DNA of 35,826 nucleotides. It comes from Pseudomonas phage PAE2. The DNA lies in sequence record OK041467.1; one strand, 5' to 3'. Below are positions 16,913 through 28,504 of the stretch, piece after piece. Each line of letters opens with the position of its first letter. The stretch's first letter is position 1. The notes below the pieces were generated by a model. That model did no database searches, was not told the DNA's origin, and saw only the letters and a list, made by a program, of their open reading frames with translations. Both the position numbers and the translations under genes were made by a program.

Positions 16913-17041
16913 ATCAATCCCCCAAATGGCGATTTATGGTCATGGGGCAGTATGCGTGAATGGCGCGTGAATTCTGGTTCTCCTGGCTGCGGATGGCGCA
17001 GAATAGGGCCTGAAAACGGATTCGAAATCCGTTGAGTCAGC

Positions 17042-17078
17042 AATGGCTCCTAGGGTTCAAATCCCTATCTCTCCGCCA
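17042..17078 (+). other. attP core: 3'-terminal fragment of a tRNA gene (T-arm, acceptor 3' strand, discriminator G, CCA); likely a Ser-type tRNA
   Basis: TAGGG-TTCAAAT-CCCTA T-arm, TCTCTCC acceptor strand, then GCCA; the matching 5' acceptor GGAGAGA is not found upstream, so it is a fragment and not a gene; adjacent to the integrase. Confidence 0.6.
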
Positions 17079-17123
17079 TATACAAGGGCTCCAGAGGTTT
17101 TCGCTTCTGGGGCCCTTTTCCTT

Positions 17124-17141
17124 TGGGGGAATCCTGGGGGA
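17124..17141. repeat. 18-bp direct repeat TGGGGGAATCCTGGGGGA (copy 2)
   Basis: Identical to 16895-16912; flanks the tRNA-like attP core on the int side. Confidence 0.8.
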
Positions 17142-17156
17142 GTTGCTTCGCGTGAC

Positions 17157-17172
17157 ATTCCCCCATTCCCCC
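17157..17172. repeat. tandem inverted copies of the arm motif (ATTCCCCC x2)
   Basis: CATTCCCCCATTCCCCCA lies immediately upstream of the int start; it is the reverse complement of GGGGGAAT. Confidence 0.7.
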
Positions 17173-17187
17173 ACTAAAGTTCGCCGC

Positions 17188-18162
17188 ATGGCTTACTTCG
17201 AGAAACGCGGAAGCGCCTGGCGCGCACAGATCCGCAGAAAAGGACACCCAACTCTTTCCGCTACCTTCGATACCAAGGCTGAGGCCCAGCGCTGGGCAGC
17301 CGAGATCGAAGGCGATATGTCGCGCTCGAGATTTGTCGATACCAGAGCGGCTATGCGAACCACCCTAGGCAAGGCCTTGGAGCAATACGAAAGGGAGATT
17401 TCTGAGCACAAGAAGGGGGCCAGCCAGGAAAGGGGTCGAATCAGGAGATGGCTGGCGCATCCCCTGGCAGCGAAAGGGCTTGGAGAAATCACTCCGTCTG
17501 ATCTTGCTGAGTATCGTGACTCTCGGCTGAAGGATGGCGCCTCATCATCTACCGTTCGGCTAGATCTGGCGATCATCAGCCACCTCTATACCATTGCGGC
17601 AAAGGAGTGGAGGCTTGAAGGACTGACGAATCCCTGCAAGAACCTGCGTATGCCAAAAGGGAGTAGGGCGCGTGAGCGACGACCAACAACCCTGGAACTG
17701 CGGAAGATTTATGCTGAAGCGGCCAAGCTTCACCCTGAACTCCCGGTGATTATCGAACTGGCAGCCGACACAGCCATGCGCCGGTCTGAGCTTCTGCTGT
17801 TACGCCGAGAGCAGATCCGCGACAAGGTTGCGGTACTGGAGGACACGAAGAACGGTGAGCGTCGTATGGTGCCGCTCTCGAGCAGGGCTCGCGAGTTGCT
17901 GAAGTCCCTGCCTGCGCGAATCGACGGCAAGGTGTTCAGCCTTGCGCCAAACACAGTCAGCAACTACTTCCCCAAGGCTTGCGAGGCCGCCGGCGTCAGC
18001 GGCCTTACCTTCCACGACCTGCGCCATGAGGCCACATCTCGGCTGTTCGAACGCGGCTTTTCCATGATGGAGGTCGCCGCGATCACCGGGCACAAGACAC
18101 TGGCCATGCTCAAACGCTACACGCATCTTTCTCCTCACGCTTTGGCCGACAAGCTCGGCTAG
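17188..18162 (+). CDS. int: tyrosine integrase
   Basis: N-terminal MAYFEKRGSAWRAQIRRKG typical of phage integrases; catalytic residues R (AADTAMRRSEL), K (DTKNGERRMVPL), HDLRH and the Tyr in KRYTHL; the upstream in-frame extension from 17032 would run through attP and is rejected. Confidence 0.9.
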   Translation: MAYFEKRGSAWRAQIRRKGHPTLSATFDTKAEAQRWAAEIEGDMSRSRFVDTRAAMRTTLGKALEQYEREISEHKKGASQERGRIRRWLAHPLAAKGLGEITPSDLAEYRDSRLKDGASSSTVRLDLAIISHLYTIAAKEWRLEGLTNPCKNLRMPKGSRARERRPTTLELRKIYAEAAKLHPELPVIIELAADTAMRRSELLLLRREQIRDKVAVLEDTKNGERRMVPLSSRARELLKSLPARIDGKVFSLAPNTVSNYFPKACEAAGVSGLTFHDLRHEATSRLFERGFSMMEVAAITGHKTLAMLKRYTHLSPHALADKLG

Positions 18163-18404
18163 GCCCTCTTCAGCAGGCGCGGCGGTTCTTTCCGTGGCCT
18201 GCCCACCTTCGGAGCATTGTGCTCTCCCGCCTCGTACTCACGCAGGAACTTGCGCACTGTTTCCAGTCTCCAGCATACCCTGATCCCCTGCTTGAAGTAC
18301 GGCGGCAGCCAGTCAGGGCTCGCCTGGATTGCGCTGCGGATTGATGATTCAGTTCGCCCGAGCAGCTTGGCAAGCTCTGGCACATGGATGATTTCAGGTT
18401 CCAT
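18159..18404 (-). CDS. xis: excisionase / AlpA-family DNA-binding protein
   Basis: 81 aa from ATG 18404 (GGAGAGG RBS; a TTG at 18410 is also in frame); small basic winged-helix-like protein convergent with int; its stop overlaps the int stop (CTAG). Confidence 0.6.
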   Translation of the reverse strand: MEPEIIHVPELAKLLGRTESSIRSAIQASPDWLPPYFKQGIRVCWRLETVRKFLREYEAGEHNAPKVGRPRKEPPRLLKRA

Positions 18405-18462
18405 AAGCAATACCTCTCCACCCCAGCTATTGCCGGGGAGGGCATGATGGTAGGATTTGGAT

Positions 18463-18506
18463 CCCAGCCGGGTTAGCTCAGGGAGAGCTAGTGGCGCCCG
18501 GCTGGG
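18463..18506 (-). other. nested inverted-repeat RNA structure between the DUF2591-like gene and xis
   Basis: CCCAGCCGGG pairs with CCCGGCTGGG (10 bp) and encloses TAGCTC-AGGGA-GAGCTA; no U-tract on either strand; starts directly at the stop of the upstream gene. Confidence 0.35.
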
Positions 18507-18872
18507 CTACTTGATGAGTTCTGCGGGGACGTTGATGGTTTCGCCTAGCTTGGCTGTAACGATGGCTCGGCATGCGGCGATTAGTAGTGTTCTTCCATAA
18601 GCTTCCGCATACGGCCTCCATGTTTGCGCAATACATCCTGCATCGGCGCGCTTCTCTGTATCCGCTGCATAGTGTGTGCGAACCATATGCTTCTCGATCA
18701 GCGGGCCGCCCTGACTCCAATCACTGGACGGTGCGTACAATGCGTTATGGAGAGCAACCATTCTCCAGCCCGGGATGACATTAAGACCTTCCTCGTTCTC
18801 GGCAAAGGCTACCGCCCAATTAAGCGCCGCCCCCTCAAGTTCGCAGGTCTTCACTTCTACGGTTTCGCTCAT
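18507..18872 (-). CDS. hypothetical protein (DUF2591-like N-terminus)
   Basis: 121 aa; MSETVEVKTCELEGAALNWAVAFA resembles the DUF2591 N-terminal pattern ELSG.ALDWAVAKA; ATGA-coupled to the upstream small ORF. Confidence 0.55.
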   Translation of the reverse strand: MSETVEVKTCELEGAALNWAVAFAENEEGLNVIPGWRMVALHNALYAPSSDWSQGGPLIEKHMVRTHYAADTEKRADAGCIAQTWRPYAEAYGRTLLIAACRAIVTAKLGETINVPAELIK

Positions 18873-19009
18873 GGCTTCATACTCATAATTATTAGCCCCT
18901 CAGCCAATACAATTCCAAGGCAGGCAAAGAACCTCACCATGTGCCCTTGTGGGAAAATCAACCCAAATGCAAACCCTAGAGCGATAAGTCCAATCTGCGA
19001 GTAGCTCAC
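18869..19009 (-). CDS. small hydrophobic 2-TM peptide (46 aa)
   Basis: Hand-translated VSYSQIGLIALGFAFGLIFPQGHMVRFFACLGIVLAEGLIIMSMKP; GTG start overlaps the upstream stop (GTGA) and its TGA overlaps the next ATG (ATGA); local GC about 45%; below the ORF-track size cutoff. Confidence 0.35.
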   Translation of the reverse strand: MSYSQIGLIALGFAFGLIFPQGHMVRFFACLGIVLAEGLIIMSMKP

Positions 19010-19239
19010 TCCCCACCTCCCGCCTTCCTAGCCTTTAGCATGGCGTCGGCAACCTGATAGGCCTGCTCTGCAACGTGGTCGCAGGTGCCATTTGTTGCAG
19101 GATGACGATCAGTGACCCCATAGGTCGAAATCCAAGCCTGCATCGCCTTGGCTGCGAAGTAGTCGCGCAGGGTCATTCCAGCTTCGGACGTGTACATCGA
19201 TTCTGACGGAAACGCTTGTCCACCGTGATCTTTCTTCAT
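19006..19239 (-). CDS. hypothetical protein
   Basis: 77-aa ORF in the coupled early-left operon. Confidence 0.5.
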   Translation of the reverse strand: MKKDHGGQAFPSESMYTSEAGMTLRDYFAAKAMQAWISTYGVTDRHPATNGTCDHVAEQAYQVADAMLKARKAGGGE

Positions 19240-19607
19240 TCCCCACCTCCCATAGACTTTCCGATCTCGGCGGCGGCGCGGACGATGGCTCGCCGAGTTG
19301 CACGCGGGCCGTCACGTTCGAATATTTCGTGTACCGCTTCCGGCGCGCCATCCCAAGCGCCGCCCACTATGACGGCGACGCCTGCGTCATAGCTTTCGTA
19401 GCGGATGTCCAGGTTCAGACGCACCGCTAAGCGCAGTGCATCGCCGTCGTCCATGAGGGGGCGCCAGTAGAGCCACTTCGAGCATGGTGATTTTGGCTCA
19501 GGAAAAACGCGGCGCTCGAACGATCCGAGATAGATGTCGTCGTCTCGCCAGCGCACCTCAATCCCCGCCGCCCGCGCCGCCAGTTCGAGTAGTTCGCGGT
19601 CGTTCAT
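19236..19607 (-). CDS. hypothetical protein (possibly related to the 18507-18872 product)
   Basis: 123 aa; ELLELAARAAGIEVRW...WRPL..DGDALRLAVRLNLDI shares an A-L-x-W / W-P layout with the DUF2591-like neighbour. Confidence 0.5.
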   Translation of the reverse strand: MNDRELLELAARAAGIEVRWRDDDIYLGSFERRVFPEPKSPCSKWLYWRPLMDDGDALRLAVRLNLDIRYESYDAGVAVIVGGAWDGAPEAVHEIFERDGPRATRRAIVRAAAEIGKSMGGGE

Positions 19608-19999
19608 TGCGTTGCTCCTTCTATGGCTGCGTCGATGATTCCGTCCAGGTCTTCACATTCATCGGCTCCATCCCCGTTGATAACTATCTCAATGTCTCGG
19701 CACATGACGTCCCATTGACGAGTGCACCTATCGCGCAGCCACCGATACCGCTCAGCATCCTTCGCCATGCGCCGAATCTGCTCTGGAATGCTGACATTGC
19801 CGCCGTCTGGAGGGTCCATGTATTCGGTGCCGGGAAGGGCGCTTGCGCATTGACTAAGCTCTTCCTCCAGCCGCTCCACCTCGCCAATCAGACCGAGAAT
19901 TTCTTGTGGTTTTGCTGATGCTAATAGCGCTACGTAACTATCAAATGTGCAATCAAGAGCCCGCTCTGCCAACACCTTCAGCCTGTTGAAGTCGGTCAT
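19604..19999 (-). CDS. small coiled-coil protein, tandem paralog 1
   Basis: MTDFNRLKVLAERALD...ILGLIGEVERLEEEL; shares N-terminal and central motifs with the next two genes. Confidence 0.5.
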   Translation of the reverse strand: MTDFNRLKVLAERALDCTFDSYVALLASAKPQEILGLIGEVERLEEELSQCASALPGTEYMDPPDGGNVSIPEQIRRMAKDAERYRWLRDRCTRQWDVMCRDIEIVINGDGADECEDLDGIIDAAIEGATQ

Positions 20000-20334
20000 T
20001 TGGTGGTTCCCTTGGTGAGAACAGTGCGAGCGATTACAACAGACCGAGCATCGCTACATGATGCATTGGAGATTTGAGAGAGAGCTTCACGCAGCGCCTC
20101 GTTCTCCGCCCTCAGCCGGTCGCGCTCTTTCGCTGCCCTGGTGCCGTCCTTGATCAGCTTCTTCGTGCACTTGCTGTTGGCGTTCAGCGAGCCACGCATG
20201 CTGCTGGTATCTGCGCGAAGCTTTTCCACTTCTTCAATCAGCCCAAGAACATCAGCACTGATATCAGGGCCTGCGCTGCCTGCACGGATCGCTAAAGCTT
20301 CAGCCCACACTTTCAGCTTGTTGATATCGCTCAT
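19996..20334 (-). CDS. small coiled-coil protein, tandem paralog 2
   Basis: MSDINKLKVWAEALA...VLGLIEEVEKLRADT...RDRLRAENEALREAL. Confidence 0.5.
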   Translation of the reverse strand: MSDINKLKVWAEALAIRAGSAGPDISADVLGLIEEVEKLRADTSSMRGSLNANSKCTKKLIKDGTRAAKERDRLRAENEALREALSQISNASCSDARSVVIARTVLTKGTTK

Positions 20335-20594
20335 GGCTTTGCTCCTTTGAGGATTTCGTTAAGATCGATGGGGACATTGATGCTGTTCATCATCTCGGCG
20401 AACTGCTTCAGTGCCCCTCGCAGAACCTCGTTCTCCGCCTTGAGCCTGTCGATCTCGTCCAGCAGGTCTAGGATCAGCTCAGGTTCAACGCAGTCGTAGA
20501 AATCGTGCAGCCTTCTACGCTCTTCTCCTTCGTCGGCGCAGCGAGACACGTCGCATGCCTCAGCCAGCCTCCGCAGCTCTGCGTGGTCGGTCAT
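20331..20594 (-). CDS. small coiled-coil protein, tandem paralog 3 (the ORF stays open upstream to 20855)
   Basis: From ATG 20594 (GGAGG RBS, ATGA overlap with the erf stop): MTDHAELRRLAEA...ILDLLDEIDRLKAENEVLRGAL; the 5' extension overlaps the erf 3' end in another frame. Confidence 0.4.
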   Translation of the reverse strand: MTDHAELRRLAEACDVSRCADEGEERRRLHDFYDCVEPELILDLLDEIDRLKAENEVLRGALKQFAEMMNSINVPIDLNEILKGAKP

Positions 20595-21568
20595 GGTTTC
20601 TTGGCCTCCATAACTACGTTCGGCTCGTACCAGGGCGAGCAGAAGAGCACTCGCGCACGCTTGTGTCGCTCGGTCATCGCGTTTACAGCGGCGCACATGG
20701 CAGCCTTCGGTGCATCGAATGGTTCTCCGACTGTTTCCCATAGCAAAGTCCACATCAACGTCGTCATAGTCAAAGTTAGGGTCATTGGATTTCCTAAGAT
20801 CGGCGTAACCGCCCATAGCTTTGGTAACCCACGCTTCAAACTCGTGGTGAAGCATCCGCCCTTACTGGGGGCCTTCCACAGTTTGGTTTTCGTTTCTTCA
20901 TCCAGGGTGAACCACTCTTCGGCGGCGGTGCTGTAGTCGCCTTCCAAGATCCCAAGCTTGATGGCGTCGACGCTTGCCTGGCATTGCTTTACGAGGCGTT
21001 CATAGTCGTTCTCCGCCGCAGCGGCAGTGAACGCATCGTCGTCCTCGCCGTGCGTGGTGAAGTTCAGCAGGGCGCCTGCTGTGTAGCGCTTGCCGTAACT
21101 GACGGAACTGGCAACGGCTTGGACGGCGTTCTTGTTGCCGCTGGTGTCTGCCGGCAGCACGATGGTAGTGCGCTCGCTGTGCCCTGCGCGGTGCGTCAGC
21201 ACTCCTTCAACTTCGATGCCTTTCTCGCAGCGCGGCATGCGGAAGCTGATGGAGAAGCCATGCTTCGCCAGGATCGGCTTGAGCTTTTCGTTGATGTCTT
21301 CCCACAGGGCGTATGTGTATCGCCCCGCTGCGTTTCCACGCTCGCCGATGGCAGGGAGTTCCTGTTGCATGGCTGCCATGGCTGCGGCGTACTGCTGTTC
21401 CGCCTGCTTTGACTGCATGCGCTCATGCATGGCCATCAAGCGCTCGAGCTTCTCGATATCGCACGATGGATCGGATGCAGCTTTCTGAATCACTTGAAGC
21501 ACTGTCGTTGCTTCGCTTGCTTGGATGACGGCAGCACTTTCCTGCCGCTGTGCAACTGCGTTGCTCAT
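20591..21568 (-). CDS. erf: ERF-family single-strand annealing recombinase (C-terminal extent uncertain)
   Basis: GRYTYALWEDINEKLKPILAKHGFSISF matches the ERF core (YxYA.L.DV...L...GLS); the last ~90 aa (Trp/Thr/Met/Leu-rich) look like an out-of-frame read, while the alternative frame 20595-20855 reads as a more protein-like Cys-containing sequence. Confidence 0.65.
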   Translation of the reverse strand: MSNAVAQRQESAAVIQASEATTVLQVIQKAASDPSCDIEKLERLMAMHERMQSKQAEQQYAAAMAAMQQELPAIGERGNAAGRYTYALWEDINEKLKPILAKHGFSISFRMPRCEKGIEVEGVLTHRAGHSERTTIVLPADTSGNKNAVQAVASSVSYGKRYTAGALLNFTTHGEDDDAFTAAAAENDYERLVKQCQASVDAIKLGILEGDYSTAAEEWFTLDEETKTKLWKAPSKGGCFTTSLKRGLPKLWAVTPILGNPMTLTLTMTTLMWTLLWETVGEPFDAPKAAMCAAVNAMTERHKRARVLFCSPWYEPNVVMEAKKP

Positions 21569-21625
21569 CGGTTGTACCTCGGTATCAGGAGTAGGCCGCG
21601 CATGCGCAGCCAGTGAAGGGAGGGG

Positions 21626-22027
21626 TTAGCGGTTACGCCAAGCTTCAGCTAGCTCGTTTTTCAGGCGCTCTACTTGGCGTTCAAGCTGTTCAATACGGGC
21701 GTCTTTGATCTGCTCGCCCATAGCCTCGCAAAGCGGCTTAACCATGTCGGACCAGCTGCTCATGAAGACGTAATGGTTCTGTCCATAGCCGTCGCTAACC
21801 ACTGCGTGGTTTTCATGAACCTCGAACTTCCCTGCGATCAGGTTGCGAACGCATCCAGAAACACGGTTACCTATGTTGGCTTCCGTATCCGTAATGACAT
21901 AGGGCAGGTAGTCGGTGTAAAGCTGCCCCATGACTCCGTCGATAACGGCCTTTGCTTCATCTTTCAGCTTGGCCATTGCTGCGGTCAGGATTTCCTCCTG
22001 CACCGCTTCGGGCGATTTAACGTCCAT
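21626..22027 (-). CDS. hypothetical protein
   Basis: 133-aa ORF with GGAG RBS and a coiled-coil C-terminus. Confidence 0.5.
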   Translation of the reverse strand: MDVKSPEAVQEEILTAAMAKLKDEAKAVIDGVMGQLYTDYLPYVITDTEANIGNRVSGCVRNLIAGKFEVHENHAVVSDGYGQNHYVFMSSWSDMVKPLCEAMGEQIKDARIEQLERQVERLKNELAEAWRNR

Positions 22028-22168
22028 ATCGTTCTCCAGGTAGAAGGGGAAAGGCGCTTACGGCGCCACTCGGCAGCGTCACCCCTGCGGGATGAATAGC
22101 GTTGCGCTAGAAGCCGCTGCTGCGGGTGTTTTCTTCATGCCGCCCACCGCCCGCTGGGGAAGCCGCAG

Positions 22169-22339
22169 TTATCCCCTAGGGCCTGCTGCGGACAGGTGCG
22201 TAGCTGGTTGTTCTGCGGTGACTTCGCCAGTGATTGCGCCGCCGAGATCGATTGCCTTGAACACGATCAGGATCGCAACCATCGCGCCGAGCAGGGTGCG
22301 CTTGGTGTAGAGCATGATTCGCTTGAAGTGGTGGTTCAT
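22169..22339 (-). CDS. small membrane protein (56 aa, single TM helix)
   Basis: Hand-translated MNHHFKRIMLYTKRTLLGAMVAILIVFKAIDLGGAITGEVTAEQPATHLSAAGPRG; its ATG overlaps the upstream stop (ATGA); it fills an otherwise ORF-free 300-bp gap. Confidence 0.4.
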   Translation of the reverse strand: MNHHFKRIMLYTKRTLLGAMVAILIVFKAIDLGGAITGEVTAEQPATHLSAAGPRG

Positions 22340-22776
22340 GGCATGGTCGCCTGGATGCTAGATTCGACCCAGTCGCGCATACGCCTCCAGCGATGCTCTG
22401 GCGTTTCGCGCCCCCACTTCATCGAGCCATCGTCCTGCCTCTGGTAGGAGCCAGGGTATTCGTCGTTCTCGAAAACGATCTCAGCGGCCAGAGCAGGAGC
22501 GATGTCGAAAGCCGCCGCTACAGTCTCTCGGCAATTCGGGTCGATCCCGCTCATGTCTATCCCGCGCCTGGCGCCGAGAACGCCGAGGGCGCAGAACTGG
22601 CCGTCAGCCTCTAGCACATCTGCGATAAGGCGTTTTTCTGGCATAGCATCCAGAGCCTCGCGCAACTCGATCAGGAAGGCCTGCCCACGCTTGCCCTTAA
22701 TTGCTGAGCTGACCGCGCCCCGCCAGCAGATCAAAGACCAGTTGTCCAAATCGTCGCAATATCCACTTCTGCTCAT
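22336..22776 (-). CDS. hypothetical protein
   Basis: 146-aa ORF; ATGA-coupled on both sides. Confidence 0.5.
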   Translation of the reverse strand: MSRSGYCDDLDNWSLICWRGAVSSAIKGKRGQAFLIELREALDAMPEKRLIADVLEADGQFCALGVLGARRGIDMSGIDPNCRETVAAAFDIAPALAAEIVFENDEYPGSYQRQDDGSMKWGRETPEHRWRRMRDWVESSIQATMP

Positions 22777-22886
22777 GGCGTAACCATCCCCACGAATGCC
22801 CAGGCGAAAGCGCCGATACCTCCCACAAAAAAGCCGCCGAAGATCAGGACTTGGGCGGCCTTGGTCAGGTCTATGGTGATGGTCAT
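22773..22886 (-). CDS. small hydrophobic peptide (37 aa)
   Basis: Hand-translated MTITIDLTKAAQVLIFGGFFVGGIGAFAWAFVGMVTP; ATGA overlap at both ends within the coupled gene chain. Confidence 0.35.
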   Translation of the reverse strand: MTITIDLTKAAQVLIFGGFFVGGIGAFAWAFVGMVTP

Positions 22887-23248
22887 GTGCGTCTCTCCCT
22901 AACCAGCTTCTCGGCGTTCTCGATAAGCGTTGCTTCGAATGCGCGGAACCAGATGCGTTGTGCTAGCTCCAGGTCGCCTCGGCGCACGGCAAGCAGCAGT
23001 TGGGTCATCGGGCATTCTTTGCTGTCTACCTCGGCGAGCCACTCCGGAACGAAGCCAGCAAAGCCGTAGACAGTGAACTCCGGCCCGATAAAGGGCCTCT
23101 CTTTCCGGTCATGGAACGGCACGCAATCACCGTCCTCGCAGTTCAGGAGCTTCCCTACCTGCGCGGTGACGTACTCGCGGTCGCCGTCATCATCAGGCGG
23201 TAGCGCGTTGTCCCAGCGTTCCTGGGCGTATTTCAATGCGGTGTTCAT
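22883..23248 (-). CDS. hypothetical protein
   Basis: ATG 23248 overlaps the upstream stop (ATGA); 121 aa. Confidence 0.5.
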   Translation of the reverse strand: MNTALKYAQERWDNALPPDDDGDREYVTAQVGKLLNCEDGDCVPFHDRKERPFIGPEFTVYGFAGFVPEWLAEVDSKECPMTQLLLAVRRGDLELAQRIWFRAFEATLIENAEKLVRERRT

Positions 23249-23475
23249 GACATCACCCACACAGCAGCGCCGACATATTCGAACTCGTTCCAGTTCGCCC
23301 GGTAGTAGGCCTGCCCCCCTGGCTTTCCATCAGATCCAAGGCCCTGAACATATCCTTGAGCGCCCCAGGACTTCGGCTCTGTAACGGTCATGATGCATCC
23401 GGCGAACATCGGGTTACTCACCTCTGGAGAGAGTTGAACCAAATCGCCGGCTTTGAGATTTAGTATCTTTTCCAT
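23245..23475 (-). CDS. hypothetical protein
   Basis: 76-aa ORF, first gene downstream of the terminator at 23536-23558. Confidence 0.5.
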   Translation of the reverse strand: MEKILNLKAGDLVQLSPEVSNPMFAGCIMTVTEPKSWGAQGYVQGLGSDGKPGGQAYYRANWNEFEYVGAAVWVMS

Positions 23476-23535
23476 GTTTCACCTCGCGTTCGCGTGCATG
23501 CGGCAGCGTCCTGTCTCGCTGTCGTCATACAGGCG

Positions 23536-23558
23536 AAAAAATGCCCGGCGAACCGGGC
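23536..23558 (-). terminator. rho-independent terminator (minus strand)
   Basis: Minus-strand GCCCGG-TTCG-CCGGGC followed by TTTTTT (plus-strand A-run 23536-23541); lies about 220 nt downstream of the tRNA-like element. Confidence 0.55.
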
Positions 23559-23779
23559 TAAGAGGGGTAGGGTATGAAAGTGATCTGCGCTGCCGGCTCT
23601 ACTTGAGCTACCTCCACCCTCTGCGGTGGCGCGCTAAGCATCAGCACTACTACTACGTCAGCGGCGTGCACACCGCTTATGCCTCGTTCGTGCCTACGCA
23701 ACCCTTCACGCCCTCGCGATGGGCCATTTACGGGTTCACAGATGCGCTACAGCAGCGCAGATCACTATCATTGGTAGGG

Positions 23780-23904
23780 TGGTGCTGCGCGCTGGATTCG
23801 AACCAGCGTCTTCCGGATTAAGGGTCCGGTGCTCTGTCCTTCACGCTTACTGTCCTATGCCTAGGGCCTTCGGCGTGTTGGCGCTCCACTGAGCTAGCGC
23901 AGAC
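23780..23904 (-). ncRNA. tRNA-like element: canonical tRNA 3' half (anticodon-arm-like hairpin, 5-nt variable loop, T-arm GCTGG-TTCGAAT-CCAGC, acceptor GCGCAGC, A, CCA) joined to a degenerate 5' half with a ~50-nt insertion; possible tRNA pseudogene or vestigial att fragment
   Basis: Minus-strand 3' end ...CCGGACCCTTAATCCGG AAGAC GCTGGTTCGAATCCAGC GCGCAGC A CCA; the 5' end TCTGCGC pairs 6/7 with the acceptor and is followed by the D-arm-like TAGCTCAGTGGAGCGC; total 125 nt, too long for a normal tRNA; flanked by TAGGGTGG direct repeats at 23774-23781 and 23905-23912. Confidence 0.4.
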
Positions 23905-24007
23905 TAGGGTGGGGATGGCCGGAGTTTCACCGGCGGCTTAATTGGTCACTACCAATAAGCTATTACCGCTATTCGCATGCGATACTCATCCCCATTGAAG
24001 GGTGGCG

Positions 24008-24322
24008 TTAGGCGGTAGCCTTGGCGATTGCGGCAGTCATCAGCTCATGGATGGCGTCGTACTCCTTAACCGATTCAGGCGATAGGAAGCCCGATCCGCT
24101 CGGCTCGACGACATCCCACAAACGACCGTACAGACGCTTGAAGGCTTGGCACGCCTCAAGCAGATCTGGCGCGGCCTGCATCAGTTGTGCAACAGCTTCA
24201 AGTTCAGACTTTGGCGTGTGAGCGCCATGAATCTGAGCAGAAAACCGGTTGAAGTTGTGAGGGTTTAAGGCGTAAACGGTCGTGCCGTCTCGATACCAAG
24301 GACCTGGCGTGTGCTTCATCAT
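24008..24322 (-). CDS. hypothetical protein (MKHTPGPW N-terminus)
   Basis: 104-aa ORF. Confidence 0.5.
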   Translation of the reverse strand: MMKHTPGPWYRDGTTVYALNPHNFNRFSAQIHGAHTPKSELEAVAQLMQAAPDLLEACQAFKRLYGRLWDVVEPSGSGFLSPESVKEYDAIHELMTAAIAKATA

Positions 24323-24337
24323 CTGTTCTCCTGCCTG

Positions 24338-24601
24338 TCAGGCGTCTTGCGGTGGTTCGGGCAGGGGCATCCAGTGGGTGGTTTCAGGCCGTTCTACATG
24401 GCCCGGTCCATCGGCACAGGTTTCGATGCGCTGGCAAGAATCCTCGGCCAGCATCCAGAAACCGCCTTCATCCGAGCCTTCGTCAGATTCCCATCGGTCG
24501 AACTCGGGAGCGAAACAGTCCTGGCCCGGCCACTTTCGGCAAACCATGACTTCATCTGAGTGCTCCGGCATACGGTCACTGCACTTGATCCACTCACTCA
24601 T
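24338..24601 (-). CDS. DUF551-family phage protein
   Basis: MSEWIKCSDRMPE...THWMPLPEPP matches the DUF551 signature (MSEWIS..DRLPE...W.PLPEPP); strong GGTGAGGTGAG RBS. Confidence 0.7.
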   Translation of the reverse strand: MSEWIKCSDRMPEHSDEVMVCRKWPGQDCFAPEFDRWESDEGSDEGGFWMLAEDSCQRIETCADGPGHVERPETTHWMPLPEPPQDA

Positions 24602-24925
24602 ATCTCACCTCACCAATACATAGTCAGAAACAGCACAACGAACAGCGCTGCGAACTCGCCAAGGTCTGGCATGGATTCCTCTCTTGCCCGGGGGCTTATG
24701 ATTGGCTGTATGGGGGAGTGGTCTGGCCGGTGCTGATCTCCGGCATTCTGCCTCGTCGCGATTGCATGGATGCGGCAGCACTTTGCAATCGGTATCGCTG
24801 CGCATCAGCCTGCGCATTCAGACCACTCTCCGATACAGCCTGGCGATGGGGAGCCAGGTGGATCGGGCCTGCGTTGGGGAACCCGGCAGGCGCGGGTGAT
24901 GCCCTGCTACCGGCAGGGCGGCGGG

Positions 24926-25093
24926 TTAGAGTTCCAGATCAGCATGGAAACGACGCGCCTCAAGCTCCTCAGGAGGAATCTCGTAATCACCTGAGCTTGC
25001 CTCGCTCACAGCGATATCTAGCGCGTCCTCTTCGCTGTCTGCTTCAACGACAACGATGCAGGTTGCTGTCAACAAACATTGATAGTGCGGCAT
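24926..25093 (-). CDS. small acidic protein (55 aa)
   Basis: GAGGAAAGG RBS 3 nt upstream of ATG 25093; translates to MPHYQCLLTATCIVVVEADSEEDALDIAVSEASSGDYEIPPEELEARRFHADLEL; preceded by the GCCCCGG-TTCG-CCGGGGC hairpin; below the ORF-track cutoff. Confidence 0.35.
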   Translation of the reverse strand: MPHYQCLLTATCIVVVEADSEEDALDIAVSEASSGDYEIPPEELEARRFHADLEL

Positions 25094-25135
25094 GTCCTTT
25101 CCTCGGTGATGCCCCGGCGAACCGGGGCGGGGTGG

Positions 25136-25318
25136 TTAGGCCGGGAAAATCTCGGCCGCCGTAAAGGCGGCGATGCGACCGCTATTCAGAATTACGAAAA
25201 CAGGGAATGAGCAGTTCTCGCGAATCTCGCTGACTACGCCGTGGCCACCGCCTTGCGCATAGACCTTCTGTCCAACCGACAGCTTCTTAAGGGTGTCGCT
25301 AAAAACTACGGTTTTCAT
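25136..25318 (-). CDS. hypothetical 60-aa protein, first gene of the PL operon
   Basis: GGAGGG RBS 7 nt upstream of ATG 25318 (MKTVVFSDTLKKLSVGQKVYAQGGGHGVVSEI...); the in-frame upstream extension to 25522 is Arg-rich and lacks a convincing RBS. Confidence 0.45.
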   Translation of the reverse strand: MKTVVFSDTLKKLSVGQKVYAQGGGHGVVSEIRENCSFPVFVILNSGRIAAFTAAEIFPA

Positions 25319-25528
25319 CGTCTTGCCCTCCAGGGCGTGTTGACTTCCTCGATGCGCCTGTCTCCAGGCGCATCTGAGAAATCTTGGTGTTTCTCGCAAA
25401 CCCTCACGCCGGTAGCCGGTGGTGAGCGCATTGCGCATTTCGTACCGTCCAACAGGTCTCACTTGCCTACCTCCGCAAACGATGCCCGATTGCAGAAGCG
25501 TTACTGGCGCCTGTTGGCTCATGCCTGG

Positions 25529-25541
25529 TTGTTAAAGAGCG
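25529..25541 (-). promoter_or_regulatory. nutL boxA-like element (CGCTCTTTAACAA on the transcript)
   Basis: Matches the lambdoid/P22 boxA consensus CGCUCUUUAACA, about +40 in the PL leader; a GCUGC-AGAACAAC-GCAGC hairpin (25561-25578) sits at the transcript 5' end. Confidence 0.4.
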
Positions 25542-25587
25542 GTCGGCTCGGTGGCCTGGCGCTGCGTTGTTCTGCAGCGTTGAGAAA

Positions 25588-25616
25588 ACATTAACCGCAG
25601 GTAGGTCTTTAGTCAA
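25588..25616 (-). promoter_or_regulatory. PL early-left promoter (-35 TTGACT, 17-bp spacer, -10 TAATGT)
   Basis: The -35 (plus AGTCAA 25611-25616) lies in the OL spacer and the -10 (plus ACATTA 25588-25593) overlaps the left half-site. Confidence 0.45.
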
Positions 25617-25629
25617 TACCTGCGGTTAA
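25591..25629. promoter_or_regulatory. OL operator: perfect 13-bp inverted repeat TTAACCGCAGGTA-N13-TACCTGCGGTTAA
   Basis: Perfect palindrome; the same ACCTGCGGTTAA motif recurs three times between cI and cro and, as far as I saw, nowhere else in the window. Confidence 0.6.
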
Positions 25630-25648
25630 TAATATTTGCGAAGACATG

Positions 25649-25670
25649 AAAAAGCCCGCCGAAGCGGGCT
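25649..25670 (-). terminator. rho-independent terminator ending the cI-lipoprotein transcript
   Basis: Minus-strand AGCCCGC-TTCG-GCGGGCT followed by TTTTT; 22 nt downstream of the lipoprotein stop. Confidence 0.65.
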
Positions 25671-25691
25671 CTAACTGTCAGAATCGATGCT

Positions 25692-26087
25692 CTACCTAGC
25701 CACTCCTCGGCATGAGTCAAAACACTGCTCTGGGGTGCGAGAGGTATTGGCTTTGCAGGCCGCAATGCATTGCTCGATGGAGTTCGTAACGGGGGCAGCA
25801 TTAGAAAATGCCGCCGAGCAGCGTAGGAGAGCCGCCCTGTTCTCAAGAGCTGCCGTGTTCTTTGCGGCAACAGCATTCCAGATCGCAGCGTTGCCAGACA
25901 TCATCGCCGGCGCAGAATTCTGCCGTGCGATCTCCTGGCGAATCATGCCGCATTGCTCTATGCGGGCATTCTCATCAGCAGGCATGGGGAGGCTATCCAC
26001 TTTGTCGGCGTAGGTCTGGCACCCAGCCAATACCGTAAGTGTCGCAAGAAAAATTGCTCTCAAAGACCACCCCCGCCCATTCTCCAC
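25692..26087 (-). CDS. Cys-rich lipoprotein co-transcribed with the repressor (lysogenic-conversion or superinfection-exclusion candidate)
   Basis: Signal peptide MENGRGWSLRAIFLATLTVLAGC with lipobox LAGC; 8 Cys in the mature part; its start overlaps the cI 3' end by 28 nt; followed by the terminator. Confidence 0.55.
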   Translation of the reverse strand: MENGRGWSLRAIFLATLTVLAGCQTYADKVDSLPMPADENARIEQCGMIRQEIARQNSAPAMMSGNAAIWNAVAAKNTAALENRAALLRCSAAFSNAAPVTNSIEQCIAACKANTSRTPEQCFDSCRGVAR

Positions 26088-26896
26088 CTCACTCGACCGA
26101 ATACAGGCAGCGTGCCCAGATCGGCGTGGCTGACGTTTTCATCAGGAAATCTTACTTTGTCTTGGCTGTCGGATCGAAGAACCACTTGGCCAGACAGCTG
26201 AACGCTCACACGTCTCAGGGAGACCTTGGAATCGGCGCCAACGAATGCGTAGACCATCCTGTCCATGATCGTGCGCTCAGACTGGTCAATCAGTACAAGG
26301 TCGCCCTCAAAGATGTAAGGCTCCATGCTGGCGTTTGTCGATTGTATGAAAACGCAGTGGCTCGGTCTGACGCCAAGATTCTCGATTAGTTTACGCGGTA
26401 GTGCTTGGCCTCCCTCGATCCGCATATGGTCGTTCAGCGAACCACTATCTCCGGGCTCTATTGATATCACAGGAATCAAGACGAAATCCCTCTCGCTAGG
26501 AGGGCGGATCCTATTTTGTGCCTTTTCGCCCTCACAAGAGGTTAATTCCAAAGGCTGATTTGTCAAAAAGTCATTGTCAAATGCGTGGTTAATACTCTGG
26601 TCAGGATGATCACCTGGAGGCGTCGATCTAGACGCCATCGCATCGATTTCTTTAGCTAATCTTGGACTAAAGTCCAAGACACTTACCTGTAGCAGCTTAG
26701 CAAAACGAGATGCCACCTGAACGTTAAGGGCGTTAACCCCATTCAGGTAGTGGTTCACGCCAGCCCCAGACATTCCGCCCATGAGGGCACCAGCCTTTTC
26801 CTGGCTTAGGCGAAGGTCCTTCTTCTTGGCCAGGTAAATATTTTTGAGCGCCAGGCATTCTCGCCTTTGCTCCTCGGTGAGGGGTTTCTTCTTCAT
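26060..26896 (-). CDS. cI: cI-like repressor: N-terminal XRE HTH plus C-terminal S24 (LexA-like) autopeptidase
   Basis: HTH within ...QEKAGALMGGMSGAGVNHYLNGVNALNVQVASRFAKLL...; C-terminal SMEPYIFEGDLVLID...GADSKVSLRRV carries the Ser and Lys catalytic dyad; divergent from cro across the operator cluster. Confidence 0.85.
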   Translation of the reverse strand: MKKKPLTEEQRRECLALKNIYLAKKKDLRLSQEKAGALMGGMSGAGVNHYLNGVNALNVQVASRFAKLLQVSVLDFSPRLAKEIDAMASRSTPPGDHPDQSINHAFDNDFLTNQPLELTSCEGEKAQNRIRPPSERDFVLIPVISIEPGDSGSLNDHMRIEGGQALPRKLIENLGVRPSHCVFIQSTNASMEPYIFEGDLVLIDQSERTIMDRMVYAFVGADSKVSLRRVSVQLSGQVVLRSDSQDKVRFPDENVSHADLGTLPVFGRVRWRMGGGGL

Positions 26897-27004: not shown

Positions 27005-27202
27005 ATGGACGCCATTCCCCTCAGCAAGCTGGTAGCCGAGAAGGGCCTTACCGCAGTTGCACGGCTCTTCCAGGTGAGCGCACCGGCTATCAAAAAAGCC
27101 ATCGACAACGACCGAGACATTCGCTGCGTGGAGCTGCTTAACGGCGTCTACAGCGCGCATGAGATCAGGCCGTTCCCCTTCAAGCCACATAAAGCCGCAT
27201 AA
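27005..27202 (+). CDS. cro: Cro-like HTH repressor
   Basis: 66 aa from ATG 27005 with AGAGAGG RBS; HTH in KGLTAVARLFQVSAPAIKKAI; divergent from cI. Confidence 0.65.
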   Translation: MDAIPLSKLVAEKGLTAVARLFQVSAPAIKKAIDNDRDIRCVELLNGVYSAHEIRPFPFKPHKAA

Positions 27203-27215
27203 GGAAATCCACCAG

Positions 27216-27404
27216 ATGTACGACGACCCGCGTCACCGCAATACAAACGAGACAAAGCTCCGCCTCGACGATGACTACGAGGCATTTCTTCGTGACCTCG
27301 CTCGGATTCATCGCACGCAAAAAGGCGTGATTGTCCGTGCGGTGATGAAGGAGTGGATCGACGAAATGAGGGCACAGCTTACCGCGAACACTGATGCGGC
27401 CTGA
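27216..27404 (+). CDS. small regulatory-type protein (cII position), possibly RHH-like
   Basis: AAGGAAA RBS; 62 aa; LRLDDDYEAFLRDLARIHRTQKGVIVRAVMKEWIDEM. Confidence 0.45.
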   Translation: MYDDPRHRNTNETKLRLDDDYEAFLRDLARIHRTQKGVIVRAVMKEWIDEMRAQLTANTDAA

Positions 27405-27422
27405 AGGCCCGAAGGAGGGCCT

Positions 27423-27620
27423 ATGGGCACTGATGATGGGCTGGCTCTCGAATCTCTGCTGAGCGAGGAAGACCTCAGATTCTTGAAGGATCTGGCAGCA
27501 GAGAGAGGGGTAACACCGCAAGAACTGGCTAAGCAGGGAATTCAATCCCTGATCGTCAGAAAGACAAGACCAAAGCTGATGCCAGTCTCTGGAGAGATAA
27601 GGCAGTTCAAGCTGAGATGA
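27423..27620 (+). CDS. small protein, possibly RHH/antitoxin-like
   Basis: GAAGGAGGG RBS; 65 aa; LRFLKDLAAERGVTPQELAKQGIQSLI. Confidence 0.45.
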   Translation: MGTDDGLALESLLSEEDLRFLKDLAAERGVTPQELAKQGIQSLIVRKTRPKLMPVSGEIRQFKLR

Positions 27621-27650
27621 CTGGCCGGAATAGGCCCTTAGAAAAGAAAA

Positions 27651-27671
27651 AGCCGGGATTACGGCCCGGCT
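27651..27671 (-). terminator. hairpin with a U-tract only in the leftward orientation
   Basis: AGCCGGG-ATTACGG-CCCGGCT preceded on the plus strand by GAAAAGAAAA, so it is terminator-like on the minus strand; on the plus strand it is a hairpin without a U-tract. Confidence 0.3.
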
Positions 27672-27694
27672 GATTCAACTACAGAACGGAAACG

Positions 27695-28504
27695 ATGATG
27701 ACAAATATTGTTCAGCTTGACAAGTCCAGGGGGTTCACCCGGATGGACAATGAATTGTACGAGGCCCTCATTGGGGCTGATCTTTCCGGGCGTGAACTTC
27801 GAGTAGCTTTGGCTGTTCATCGCCTAACTGCTGGGTTCAATCAAGACGAGTCTCGCATCACTGCGTCGGTGATTGCTGACATGTCCGGAATCCGTCGTGA
27901 GCATGTTTCTAGGATGCTCTGTGAGCTTCTGCGTCAACGTGTGATTTACCGGGTTGGAGGATCTAAAGGTCCAATCGGTTTTTCTCCCGTTTCTGAGTGG
28001 AAGATCGATGAAAAGGTGTGTGCCGAAAACGGCACAAAGGATTTGGCACAGAGTGCCGAAAACGGCACAAAAGTAGTGCCAATTTCGGCACACTATAAAG
28101 ACAGTAAAGACAATACAACTCCTAACGGAGTTGTTACGCCCGCAAAGCCTGTCGAAGAAAAACCTGCGAAGGCTAAAGCGTTTGGTCTGGCCGATCTCCT
28201 GTCCGACAACCCGCATAGCATCCCTGAGCAACTCCTGGCGGACTGGATAACGACCCGCAAGGCAAAGCGTGCCGCGCTAACCCCTACGGCCTGGAAGCGT
28301 CTGAACAACTCTCTGGCAAAGTGCAAGGCCGCTGGCTTCACCGCTGAATACGCGGTCGAAACCATGGTGTCAAAGGGGTGGCAGACCGTAGAAGTCGACT
28401 GGCTGAAGAACTCAACTCGGAGTTTTTCAGGGCCTCAATCGGTCCCCGCATACGACGCCAATGACACCTCCTGGGCCGTAGGCCTGGAACAGGATCTGTT
28501 CTGA
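27695..28504 (+). CDS. replication initiator (lambda O-like, Phage_rep_O N-terminal domain)
   Basis: LSGRELRVALAVHRLTAGFNQDESRITASVIADMSGIRREHVSRMLCELL matches the replisome-organiser N-domain; the central linker (AENGTK repeats) is encoded by the iterons. Confidence 0.75.
   Translation: MMTNIVQLDKSRGFTRMDNELYEALIGADLSGRELRVALAVHRLTAGFNQDESRITASVIADMSGIRREHVSRMLCELLRQRVIYRVGGSKGPIGFSPVSEWKIDEKVCAENGTKDLAQSAENGTKVVPISAHYKDSKDNTTPNGVVTPAKPVEEKPAKAKAFGLADLLSDNPHSIPEQLLADWITTRKAKRAALTPTAWKRLNNSLAKCKAAGFTAEYAVETMVSKGWQTVEVDWLKNSTRSFSGPQSVPAYDANDTSWAVGLEQDLF
28020..28091. repeat. origin-like iterons: three palindromic 16-mers GTGCCGAAAACGGCAC (28020-28035, 28053-28068) and GTGCCAATTTCGGCAC (28076-28091), with an adjacent AT-rich tract
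   Basis: Inside the O-like gene, as for the lambda ori; the AT-rich tract CTATAAAGACAGTAAAGACAATACAAC follows. Confidence 0.6.

Follow-up and report, generated by a model that had tools for sequence, protein, structure and literature searches.

The DNA analysed here is a stretch of 35,826 nt from Pseudomonas phage PAE2 (OK041467.1), which we call the window; all coordinates are those of the window, and features lie on the minus strand unless stated otherwise. Between the TAA of a 104-aa ORF (24010-24008) and an ATG at 23475 lies a gap (24007-23476), in a position that appears to close the first segment of the early-left (PL-type) operon, shortly ahead of a conserved intrinsic terminator. It contains an array of three modules, in the 5' to 3' order A, T and B, and then the terminator and a leader. 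An earlier reading of the letters alone (the sequence-only reading) had called this gap non-coding, and it was right to do so: the 122-aa and 57-aa ORFs on the plus strand and the 47-aa ORF on the minus strand match no PHROG family at E<0.001, the 57-aa ORF giving a single marginal match (E 0.0099). The 'hypothetical protein' annotated on the opposite strand of the homologous stretch in BUCT566 likewise has no PHROG match at E<0.001, and homologues of the B stretch differ by indels of 1 nt and 3 nt. The hypothetical proteins that several GenBank records place across B (on the opposite strand, as checked in BUCT566) are probably spurious. Our literature search found no description of this locus, and a phage RNA locus of this kind does not appear to have been described before.

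Downstream of the array, a C-rich spacer, CCCCUCUUA (23567-23559), leads into a predicted intrinsic terminator, GCCCGG-UUCG-CCGGGC followed by U6 (23558-23536; stem 23558-23543), and then into a 60-nt leader (23535-23476) that runs up to the ATG at 23475. This leader is 91-97% identical in D3, PMG1, Shamal and others, and the gene that follows it differs among these phages. The sequence-only reading had seen the terminator and assigned it to the tRNA-like element described below as module T. A terminator is indeed predicted there, but it does not belong to T alone, because it is found, with a variable loop, in all related loci, and terminator and leader together are common to about 110 of them (including D3, JBD44 and Ab31), almost all without T. 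A nut site was also considered, with CCCUCUUA as a boxA-like element, and rejected: the hairpin that follows has variable loops and a U-tract and is therefore better taken as a terminator.

At the other end, the conserved 5' leader CGCCACCCTTCAAT (23994..24007), kept in about 100 related loci, contains CCACCCTT (24005-23998) and gives module A a U at position -1. Promoter prediction over 23000-24500 returned no promoter-like site, and by reading the sequence we saw no fit to sigma-70 spacing in this conserved 5' flank; the array appears to have no promoter of its own. Modules A, T and B share the orientation of the flanking genes and of the terminator, and on this ground we accept the earlier proposal that the RNA would run in the sense of the early-left operon. 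The array as a whole has a folding z-score of -4.39; the antisense strand of the region reaches an equal minimum free energy (-191 kcal/mol) with a z-score of -3.17. Because of that equal energy, the strand assignment rests on the tRNA features, the G·U pairs and the orientation of genes and terminator. Taken singly, A (-4.45), B (-4.42) and a further module in a second slot, E (-4.53), have strongly negative z-scores, and T only -1.47. When the region was searched against Rfam, at the gathering threshold and at E<=10, the tRNA family alone passed; A, B and E had no match, and the other matches at E<=10 were weak and to unrelated families.

The slot is conserved across related loci, and related phages carry a changing set of what are predicted to be tRNA-shaped RNA modules. 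Most loci have A alone; A is joined by T in three (L008, L007 and L274) and by B in BUCT566, Ab31, L010 and others, and the window alone has A, T and B together. T is rare (4 of about 110 loci) and B occasional. A terminal helix closes every module. The junction at which T sits (ACCCTA|CCCCTC) is also used by a small AT-rich ORF in L102 and by module B, and other tRNA-like fragments lie nearby in L274, L047 and L088. Comparison of the interiors of A, E, T, B and C revealed no shared subsequences and no sign of cassette exchange between slots.

The modules are punctuated by a short motif. The direct repeat CCACCCTA occurs at 23782-23775, overlapping the CCA end of T, and at 23912-23905, overlapping the end of A; together with CCACCCTT the motif is matched five times in the window, where 1.17 matches would be expected, and three of the five fall within about 230 nt. 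The 8-bp repeats that had been noted as flanking the tRNA-like element are thus present, but they are not specific to it: each of the array's modules ends in (C)CACCCTA or ACCCTA, and the motif also occurs in phages that have no T. An insertion of the MITE type, with duplication of its target site, was considered in view of the direct repeats that flank T (8 bp) and B (6 bp); the motif pre-exists at the empty site; in L008, T lacks the 3' copy of the repeat, and in L072, B has no flanking repeat. Mimicry of a CRISPR repeat was set aside: the string GGGGATGAA resembles the end of the type I-E repeat, but the hairpin of that repeat is absent.

Module A (23993-23905) is a predicted cloverleaf-shaped RNA found in almost every locus that extends to the 5' anchor. 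Its closing stem, GGGGAUG/CAUCCCC (23993-23987/23917-23911), precedes the tail ACCCUA (23910-23905) and encloses two arms and a 3'-proximal, T-like hairpin, GCCGG-UGAAACU-CCGGC, which abuts it. Among 52 unique variants the closing stem is identical in 48, and the hairpin lies at most 1 nt from the 3' strand in 45 (43 directly abutting), with a 7-nt loop in 31 of these; the remaining seven have no abutting hairpin. Position 4 of the hairpin stem covaries from G-C to U-A. The interiors are hypervariable, falling into at least 11 unrelated clusters, and within the D3-type family there are two compensatory pairs and many G-C/G·U switches. A also has U(-1), G1-C72, a 7-bp stem with an abutting hairpin and an A-C-C-C tail, candidate features of an RNase P substrate. 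Near-identical copies of A accompany differing upstream and downstream genes and cI genes just 39% identical, and we therefore rejected a link between A variant and immunity type; an RsmA/CsrA site was also rejected, the GGA motif being buried in the closing stem. Matches of the A 3' end in the genome collection were almost all chance or REP-like, in unrelated phyla, the one real match being to a Pseudomonas nitroreducens prophage.

Module T (23903-23780; 124 nt) is, judging from its sequence features, derived from a tRNA-Lys(CUU), and the earlier claim stands: this is a genuine derivative of a tRNA, about 125 nt long and broken by some 50 extra nt. The covariance-model search with Rfam finds a tRNA in T (23847-23791) at 29.9 bits, just above the gathering score of 29, as a local match over model positions 9-63; the copy in L274 scores 31.1 bits. 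The 3' half is as previously described, with an anticodon stem CCGGA/TCCGG, an anticodon loop CCCUUAA (CCCTTAA in DNA; 23824-23818), a variable loop AAGAC, a T arm GCTGG-TTCGAAT-CCAGC (23807-23791), an acceptor 3' strand GCGCAGC (23790-23784), A73 and an encoded CCA (23782-23780). By the Rfam alignment and ARAGORN the anticodon loop reads C32, C33, CUU (23822-23820), A37 and A38; the C33 (from the alignment and from reading the sequence) departs from the U33 of a canonical 7-nt loop, and the purine at 37 is retained. On the 5' side, TCTGCGC (23903-23897) pairs with the acceptor 3' strand at 6 of 7 positions, as had been proposed, the mismatch being an abnormal U1·C72; it is followed by TA, GCTC and AGTGG, and the base before the module (position -1) is G. 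The D arm had been taken for a relic, which it is not: its 3' strand, GAGC (23834-23831), lies beyond a 50-nt insert (23885-23836) placed after G18-G19, at position 20 of the D loop, and predicted to form a hairpin, CACGC...GCGUG. By eye, T retains U8, A14, G15-C48, G18G19, A21, G46, G53-C61 and the T loop UUCGAAU; of these, U8, A14, G18G19, G53-C61 and UUCGAAU, read from the Rfam alignment as well, are the conserved tertiary nucleotides and T loop of a canonical tRNA. Its arm sizes are not those of a full-length canonical tRNA, given the insert and the local Rfam match.

ARAGORN (tRNA and tmRNA) made no call at the locus in the window or in about 20 loci, and Rfam gave no tmRNA match. With the insert deleted in silico, ARAGORN called a tRNA-Lys(CTT) in 62 of 63 boundary variants. 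A blastn search of the phage database with T gave no uninterrupted relative; the 3' half alone was similar, in a generic way, to tRNAs for Lys, Arg, Ile and Asn, and a pattern scan of IMG/VR with the T anticodon arm found the known copies, an unrelated jumbo-phage tRNA cluster and nothing else.

The stretch that follows T, which the sequence-only reading had treated as about 220 nt of non-coding spacer, is instead a separate, conserved and structured module. B (23769-23576; 194 nt, with a tail CAUACCCUA to 23568) folds as a closed, multi-branched RNA. Of the 20 predicted pairs in its closing helix 17 are invariant; the helix contains UCUGCGC, like the acceptor stem of T, followed by UAGCGC, and a small hairpin, GCUC-AAGUA-GAGC, lies near the 3' side. 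Across six variants, 4 of 64 predicted pairs show compensatory double changes, and several are G·U on the minus strand. B is also present in BUCT566, Ab31, YA3 and others, and in L072 it has another flank and its own terminator. Its closing repeats and UAGC raised the possibility of a retron msr/msd, which we rejected: the neighbourhood has no reverse transcriptase, and UAGC is equally the tRNA U8-A9-G10-C11 motif.

A second slot upstream holds module E (24840-24704), a predicted cloverleaf. Its bulged closing helix (GGCUGUAU-C-GG-A-GAGUGGUCUG/CAGACCACUC-C-CC-C-AUACAGCC) and its first arm are conserved, its middle is hypervariable, and a T-like hairpin, GCCGG-AGAUCAGCA-CCGGC (24744-24726), abuts the closing helix. 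The 23 unique variants of E share a common frame with differing interiors, the same design as in A. In L047 the E interior holds an anticodon-less tRNA-like element that scores 39.1 bits.

The explanation that we favour, and to which we would give an even chance, is that the gap is a co-transcribed array of three tRNA-shaped RNA cassettes excised by host enzymes, with T an accessory mimic of tRNA-Lys. It starts from the observed anatomy of the array, its modular reassortment, the conservation of its structures and its tRNA ancestry; from there we infer that the array would be transcribed as one unit and processed, and that its products may act in trans. On the evidence of their shape, host RNA-processing enzymes would cut the operon transcript at the closing helices. 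RNase P would cut the 5' ends of A and T: A would offer the enzyme U(-1), G1-C72, a 7-bp stem stacked on a 5-6-bp hairpin and an A73-C74-C75 tail, and T, with its G at -1 and its U1·C72, would be a less than ideal substrate. RNase III would cut the approximately 20-bp helices of B and of E. Such cuts would punctuate the polycistronic mRNA and free stable, tRNA-like small RNAs. If only this processing frame is constrained, as we propose, the interiors would be free to diverge and to accept nested insertions. Against this explanation, A itself is not recognised by the Rfam tRNA model, seven of its 52 variants lack the abutting hairpin, and the folding z-score of T taken alone is unremarkable. 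T would be an accessory cassette that came from a tRNA-Lys(CUU) and kept the nucleotides of the L-shape, the anticodon loop, A73 and the encoded CCA, with its extra arm at what would be the solvent-exposed position 20 of the D loop. Both C33 and the 50-nt arm speak against normal decoding, and the most plausible role of T is not that of an ordinary decoder but that of a substrate, or a decoy, for tRNA-Lys-recognising enzymes.

A much bolder version, which we consider improbable at present, holds that the two slots (A/T/B at 24.0-23.5 kb and E at 24.84-24.70 kb) represent an undescribed class of phage non-coding RNA, in which a constant tRNA-like scaffold carries a hypervariable core that exchanges cassettes. 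The cores would act in trans as decoys or sponges that bear the specificity in conflicts between phage and host or between phages; T would be a nuclease-resistant mimic of tRNA-Lys, and the anticodon-less inserts would present tRNA-targeting toxins with a mimic of the acceptor end and elbow.

Rather unlikely, in our estimation, is that T has no function of its own and is a tRNA pseudogene in decay, or a fragment that has hitch-hiked, caught at a recombination-prone junction open to any insert that is self-contained. ARAGORN does not call T, and its Rfam score is barely at the threshold; T has C33, the 1:72 mismatch and the 50-nt insertion, and it is rare; the junction has also accepted the AT-rich ORF of L102 and B, and tRNA-like fragments lie close by, all as decay would have it. 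However, the tertiary-contact nucleotides that we checked are intact, the insertion occupies the only position of the D loop at which extra nucleotides are tolerated, and the 74-nt tRNA body is invariant in all four known copies, each in a different phage background. All 4 variable sites fall within the insert (probability by chance about 0.03-0.07); one retains its pair as G·U, one, in L274, breaks a pair, and another weakens an alternative proximal D-stem pairing. This confinement is a weak sign of constraint on the body, and the substitution pattern leans weakly against plain decay; the four copies are nearly identical, so that the conservation may merely reflect recent spread.

An explanation that overlaps with the favoured one, and adds to it a specific function, makes T an anti-defence surrogate or decoy of tRNA-Lys: a moron-like accessory RNA, charged by LysRS or bound by a nuclease that targets tRNA-Lys (of the PrrC, RloC or PARIS-AriB type), whose C33 and extra arm resist cleavage and so secure translation or titrate the nuclease. 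We think it unlikely that T does precisely this. PrrC cleaves the bond next to tRNA position 33, and the deviant position of T adjoins the bond cut by anticodon nucleases; the lysine identity elements U35, U36 and A73 are present with the encoded CCA, and T is rare and reassorts like an accessory gene, with a body that does not vary between copies. On the other side, neither the phage database nor IMG/VR yielded an intact relative free of the insert, the arm near the elbow would probably hinder contacts with the ribosome and RNase P, and the U1·C72 mismatch is abnormal. Furthermore, CUU reads AAG, a lysine codon abundant in a GC-rich host, so supplementation with a tRNA-Lys(CUU) would not be needed. 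The hypothesis that phage tRNAs evade tRNA-targeting defences itself rests on mutations in the anticodon loop (PMC10264068), and phage tRNAs have been shown to overcome a retron and other defences (PMC11555353).

We regard as very doubtful the possibility that the modules are antisense regulators like c4 or CI, processed by RNase P, with variable loops that pair with phage targets and an interior that sets the specificity of immunity or exclusion. The design is similar, with a constant frame and a variable interior: the c4 RNA of P1 and the CI RNA of P4 have a closing stem, internal hairpins and an RCC tail, lie in a phage regulatory operon and vary between related phages. However, Rfam gave no C4 match in the region at E<=10 or in 11 related loci at E<=1, and no ant or icd gene was recognised downstream. 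The longest complementarity of A interiors to their own locus was 9-13 nt against means of 9-11 nt for unrelated loci, by exact matching, a test within whose reach loop-loop pairings of up to 9 nt do not fall. Copies of one A variant are also found beside differing neighbouring genes and with another cI.

Phage attP cores often duplicate the 3' ends of tRNAs, and T has a perfect tRNA 3' half between short direct repeats, as though a host tRNA 3' half had served as an attP core or been left by an ancestral integration. This relic attachment site, put forward in the sequence-only reading, we reject as most improbable: the 22-mer of T arm and acceptor, GGTTCGAATCCAGCGCGCAGCA, is present in none of 185,579 species genomes (exact matches only being counted), the integrase (Pfam PF00589; 17032-18162, plus strand) lies 5.6 kb away, the 5' half with its D arm is present as well, the repeats recur at every module end, and in Ab31 and YA3 attP adjoins int, with integration at a tRNA-Ser (PMC3974807, PMC7326022).

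The loci compared here include D3, JBD44, Ab31 and YA3, which are well-used model temperate phages of P. aeruginosa. The genome papers of Ab31 and YA3 report "no tRNA genes" and do not discuss the present region (PMC3974807, PMC7326022). If the processed RNAs are real, these phages would have at least two conserved slots for tRNA-shaped RNAs whose interiors turn over like accessory genes, and the concept of the moron, or accessory gene, would extend to structured RNAs. The modules would then be new candidates for RNA-based counter-defence or regulation in phages, beside c4/CI, nuclease-evading tRNAs and RNA anti-CRISPRs. T, for its part, would be a natural tRNA fold that tolerates a 50-nt arm at D-loop position 20, which could be useful for tRNA engineering and for studies of enzyme recognition.

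Several known systems resemble parts of this locus. Like the tRNA genes of other phages, including those that evade nucleases (PMC10264068, PMC11555353), T is a phage-carried accessory with a deviation in the anticodon loop, and its body is likewise that of a tRNA, here a tRNA-Lys(CUU), with the T loop, the tertiary nucleotides, A73 and an encoded CCA. It differs from them in its 50-nt D-loop arm, its C33 and U1·C72, in being missed by tRNA finders, and in its setting, a temperate early-left operon and an array of cloverleaf RNAs that are not tRNAs. The C4 RNA of P1 and P7 and the CI RNA of P4 (the RF01695 clan) have a similar closing stem with an RCC(A) tail, internal hairpins and variation between relatives; they are cut from an operon transcript, to which we liken the predicted excision of the modules. 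Unlike these, the modules lack a covariance-model match, target complementarity (by exact matching) and an icd/ant context, are larger (87-194 nt) and stand in tandem.

In architecture the modules match the bacterial Y RNA YrlA, in which a terminal helix encloses a tRNA-like domain without a normal anticodon arm; its closest counterparts here are the nested, anticodon-less tRNA-like element of L047 and the bulged closing helix of the second slot. The modules differ from YrlA in matching no Rfam family except tRNA, and no rsr (Ro) or TROVE domain was found by Pfam in 18 neighbouring ORFs (20591-26896, 17032-20855 and 27180-28504). Finally, the RNase III sites of phage early operons (T7 R1-R5, the lambda N leader and sib) are far smaller than the modules, which are cloverleaf-branched, in some cases tRNA-featured and hypervariable inside, and for which cleavage is a prediction. 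Like the modules, however, they are self-contained intergenic helices in early operons transcribed by the host RNAP, and the approximately 20-bp helices of B and E are of the size of an RNase III substrate.

Sequence comparison indicates that the non-coding gap between the stop codon of the 104-aa gene and the ATG at 23475 (23476-24007) is a slot whose frame is fixed. The gap was aligned with BUCT566, Ab31, JBD44, D3 and Shamal; the comparison was then widened to about 110 IMG/VR loci gathered by conserved terminator and leader patterns. On the minus strand the frame runs from the upstream stop codon through CGCCACCCTTCAAT, a cloverleaf RNA (module A, 23993-23905), ACCCTA, optional cassettes, CCCCTC(A)TTA, a terminator (GCCCGG-loop-CCGGGC-T6) and a 60-nt leader to the next gene. 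This non-coding frame is 91-97% conserved between phages, and the genes on both flanks vary. The cassettes here are a tRNA-Lys(CUU)-like element (T, 23903-23780) and a structured RNA (B, 23769-23576); at the same junction (ACCCTA|CCCCTC) the related locus L102 holds a small AT-rich ORF, and A and the terminator lie about 240 nt apart there. The spacer CCCCUCUUA (23559-23567, minus strand), directly before the terminator hairpin, is boxA-like (CGCUCAUUA in JBD44); the hairpin is not a boxB, because its loop sequence varies between phages.

The window belongs to a mosaic D3/JBD44/Ab31/BUCT566 group of temperate P. aeruginosa phages, and all 59 phage records matching parts of the gap by blastn are from Pseudomonas. 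The minus-strand order is cI repressor (26060-26896), DUF551 protein (24338-24601), 104-aa protein (24008-24322), gap, small-gene chain and Erf recombinase (20591-21568), with the integrase on the plus strand (17032-18162), so that 'early-left operon' is a fair label. Overlapping the end of cI, a 131-aa ORF (25692-26087, minus) with a lipoprotein-type signal (…LTVLAGC) and no family in Pfam or PHROG may be a lysogeny-expressed moron. About 3 kb farther down the same operon, two related phages have sub-threshold matches to the Rfam Proteo-phage-1 RNA (L017:2720-2801, 33.7 bits; L011:4733-4814, 27.9 bits; gathering score 42).

Module A was found in nearly all loci reaching the 5' anchor, and no Rfam model recognises it. 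Among its 52 unique variants, 48 close with one and the same 7-bp stem, GGGGAUG/CAUCCCC, and continue with ACCC, and 45 have a GC-rich hairpin 0-1 nt from the 3' strand of that stem (directly abutting in 43, and with a 7-nt loop in 31 of the 45), a geometry that resembles a tRNA acceptor arm stacked on its T arm. Interior length varies between 38 and 155 nt, and the interiors form at least 11 clusters that cannot be aligned with one another. The window copy folds as a cloverleaf (z -4.45), and in the D3-type family arm pairing is kept by two double changes that restore a pair and by numerous G-C/G·U switches on one side only. Four loci (L122, L136, L133, L092) carry an ~80-aa gene between two A-type elements with different interiors, the second preceded by TCTAAAT, not TTCAAT. 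A palindromic repeat (…ACCC-ATCCCCACCCTCCCCCTC-CCCTTGAAGGGGAGGG…) in betaproteobacterial genomes (Undibacterium, Oxalobacteraceae and others; L160, L166, L174, L177, L185 etc.) was rejected as a relative of the A 3' end, being a chance match to the 18-mer query in unrelated genomes.

Module B, seen in about 20 loci, is predicted to be a closed multi-branch RNA of 194 nt (z -4.42), with 17 of the 20 pairs of its closing helix invariant and compensatory changes in 4 of its 64 predicted pairs; the copy in L072 has a different flank and its own terminator. The structure of the gap may instead lie at the DNA level, as the antisense strand has an MFE equal to that of the sense strand (z -3.17 against -4.39), but RNA is favoured by G·U pairs on the minus strand, by the polarity of the tRNA-like element and by the terminator.

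The sequence-only reading had described T as a tRNA-like unit of about 125 nt, and its statements on the sequence of the gap were all borne out by rereading, Rfam, the terminator and the repeat count. The Rfam tRNA model matches T at 23847-23791 (29.9 bits, gathering score 29; model positions 9-63 only), and ARAGORN called nothing there. Reread, the 5' part comprises the acceptor strand TCTGCGC, U8-A9, the D-stem GCTC and A14-G15-U-G18-G19, followed by a 50-nt insertion (23885-23836), A21 and the 3' D-stem strand GAGC (23834-23831). With the insertion deleted in silico, ARAGORN calls a tRNA-Lys(CTT) in 62 of 63 boundary variants. All tertiary-contact positions checked (standard numbering) are present: U8-A14, G15-C48, G18/G19, G46, G53-C61 and the T loop UUCGAAU. 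The insertion falls at position 20 of the D loop, a place at which extra residues are tolerated in natural tRNAs; what sets T apart from a working tRNA is this additional arm, C33 for U33 and the mismatch of U1 with C72. It occurs in four loci only (the window, L008, L007 and L274), invariably immediately after A and before B or the terminator. An uncalled tRNA-like piece with T's anticodon arm (CCGGACTCTTAATCCGG) lies in a jumbo-phage contig with 20 tRNA genes (L273:1840-1910, minus). Plain decay of a phage tRNA, one of the explanations first proposed for T, is possible, but the four copies vary at four sites, every one of them within the insert and none in the 74-nt tRNA body (chance ~0.03-0.07).

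The operon has a second slot, about 1 kb farther upstream, with more tRNA-shaped elements. In the related locus L047 (646-713), a full-length Rfam tRNA match (39.1 bits, model positions 1-71), with a 7-nt stub for an anticodon arm, a G73-CCA end and no ARAGORN call, is nested within the closing helix of this slot, and its conserved 3' flank is also in the window. In the predicted cloverleaf fold of the window module (E, 24840-24704, minus; z -4.53 for 24672-24925), the bulged closing helix and the first arm are conserved, a T-like hairpin lies directly against the helix, and the middle is hypervariable. Its 23 unique variants share one frame, some with nested T-arm-like hairpins (GAGGG-UUCGACU-CCCUC). 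Directly after E, a 20-codon hydrophobic mini-ORF, MPDLGEFAALFVVLFLTMYW (24610-24672, minus), has a good ribosome-binding site and a start conserved in L047. In L274 (2555-2665 and 2800-2900), the conserved leader that follows the terminator is interrupted by another closed module, which has two UUCGACU hairpins with T loops of tRNA type; a short insert and a second copy of terminator and leader are also present, in that order. The operon is thus, on predicted folds, peppered with self-contained tRNA-shaped RNA modules of one plan, a constant frame around a variable core. What had been taken for T's own terminator is part of the operon frame, its 220-nt spacer is module B, and its flanking 8-bp direct repeats are a recurring module-end motif.

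The possibility that the modules are antisense RNAs like c4/CI, RNase P-processed phage RNAs that they resemble in overall design, is counted against by the lack of a covariance-model match, by variant complementarity no better to the own locus than to other loci, and by the occurrence of one A variant beside different neighbouring genes and with a cI of only 39% identity. An attachment-site relic, also first suggested for T, is rejected: the T-arm/acceptor 22-mer has no exact match among 185,579 species genomes, T keeps the tRNA 5' half too, the integrase is 5.6 kb away, and in Ab31 and YA3 attP adjoins int in a tRNA-Ser site (PMC3974807, PMC7326022). A coding role for the gap is not supported: its ORFs have no supported PHROG family (the sole match is marginal, E 0.0099) and indels between homologues shift every reading frame. 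The 'hypothetical protein' CDS annotated across B on the opposite strand in BUCT566 (L001:2385-2765), itself without a PHROG family, is probably spurious for the same reasons. Several other GenBank records have a 'hypothetical protein' under the blastn match; the opposite-strand placement is established for BUCT566.

For the tRNA-shaped modules, we propose that the conserved parts are those read by host processing enzymes. These are U at -1, G1-C72, a helix of 7 bp with a hairpin stacked on it, and an A-C-C tail, as in minimal RNase P substrates, together with helices of ~20 bp, the size of RNase III substrates. Regions that the enzymes ignore would be free to vary and to take nested inserts, so the array may be read as cassettes excised from the early-left transcript. 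Excision would set a break in the mRNA immediately ahead of the first terminator and free stable tRNA-like RNAs, which may act in trans; T would be an accessory element that mimics tRNA-Lys(CUU).

A, B and E fall outside every Rfam family, and a full-text search of the literature found no description of the locus; according to the genome papers for Ab31 and YA3, these phages have no tRNA genes, and neither paper takes up this region (PMC3974807, PMC7326022). The design, a constant scaffold with a hypervariable core, may represent a new functional class, though this is the less likely case. We file the locus with the tRNA-like phage RNAs, and recent work on phage tRNAs that evade defences directed at tRNA suggests that T may be a decoy or surrogate (PMC10264068, PMC11555353).
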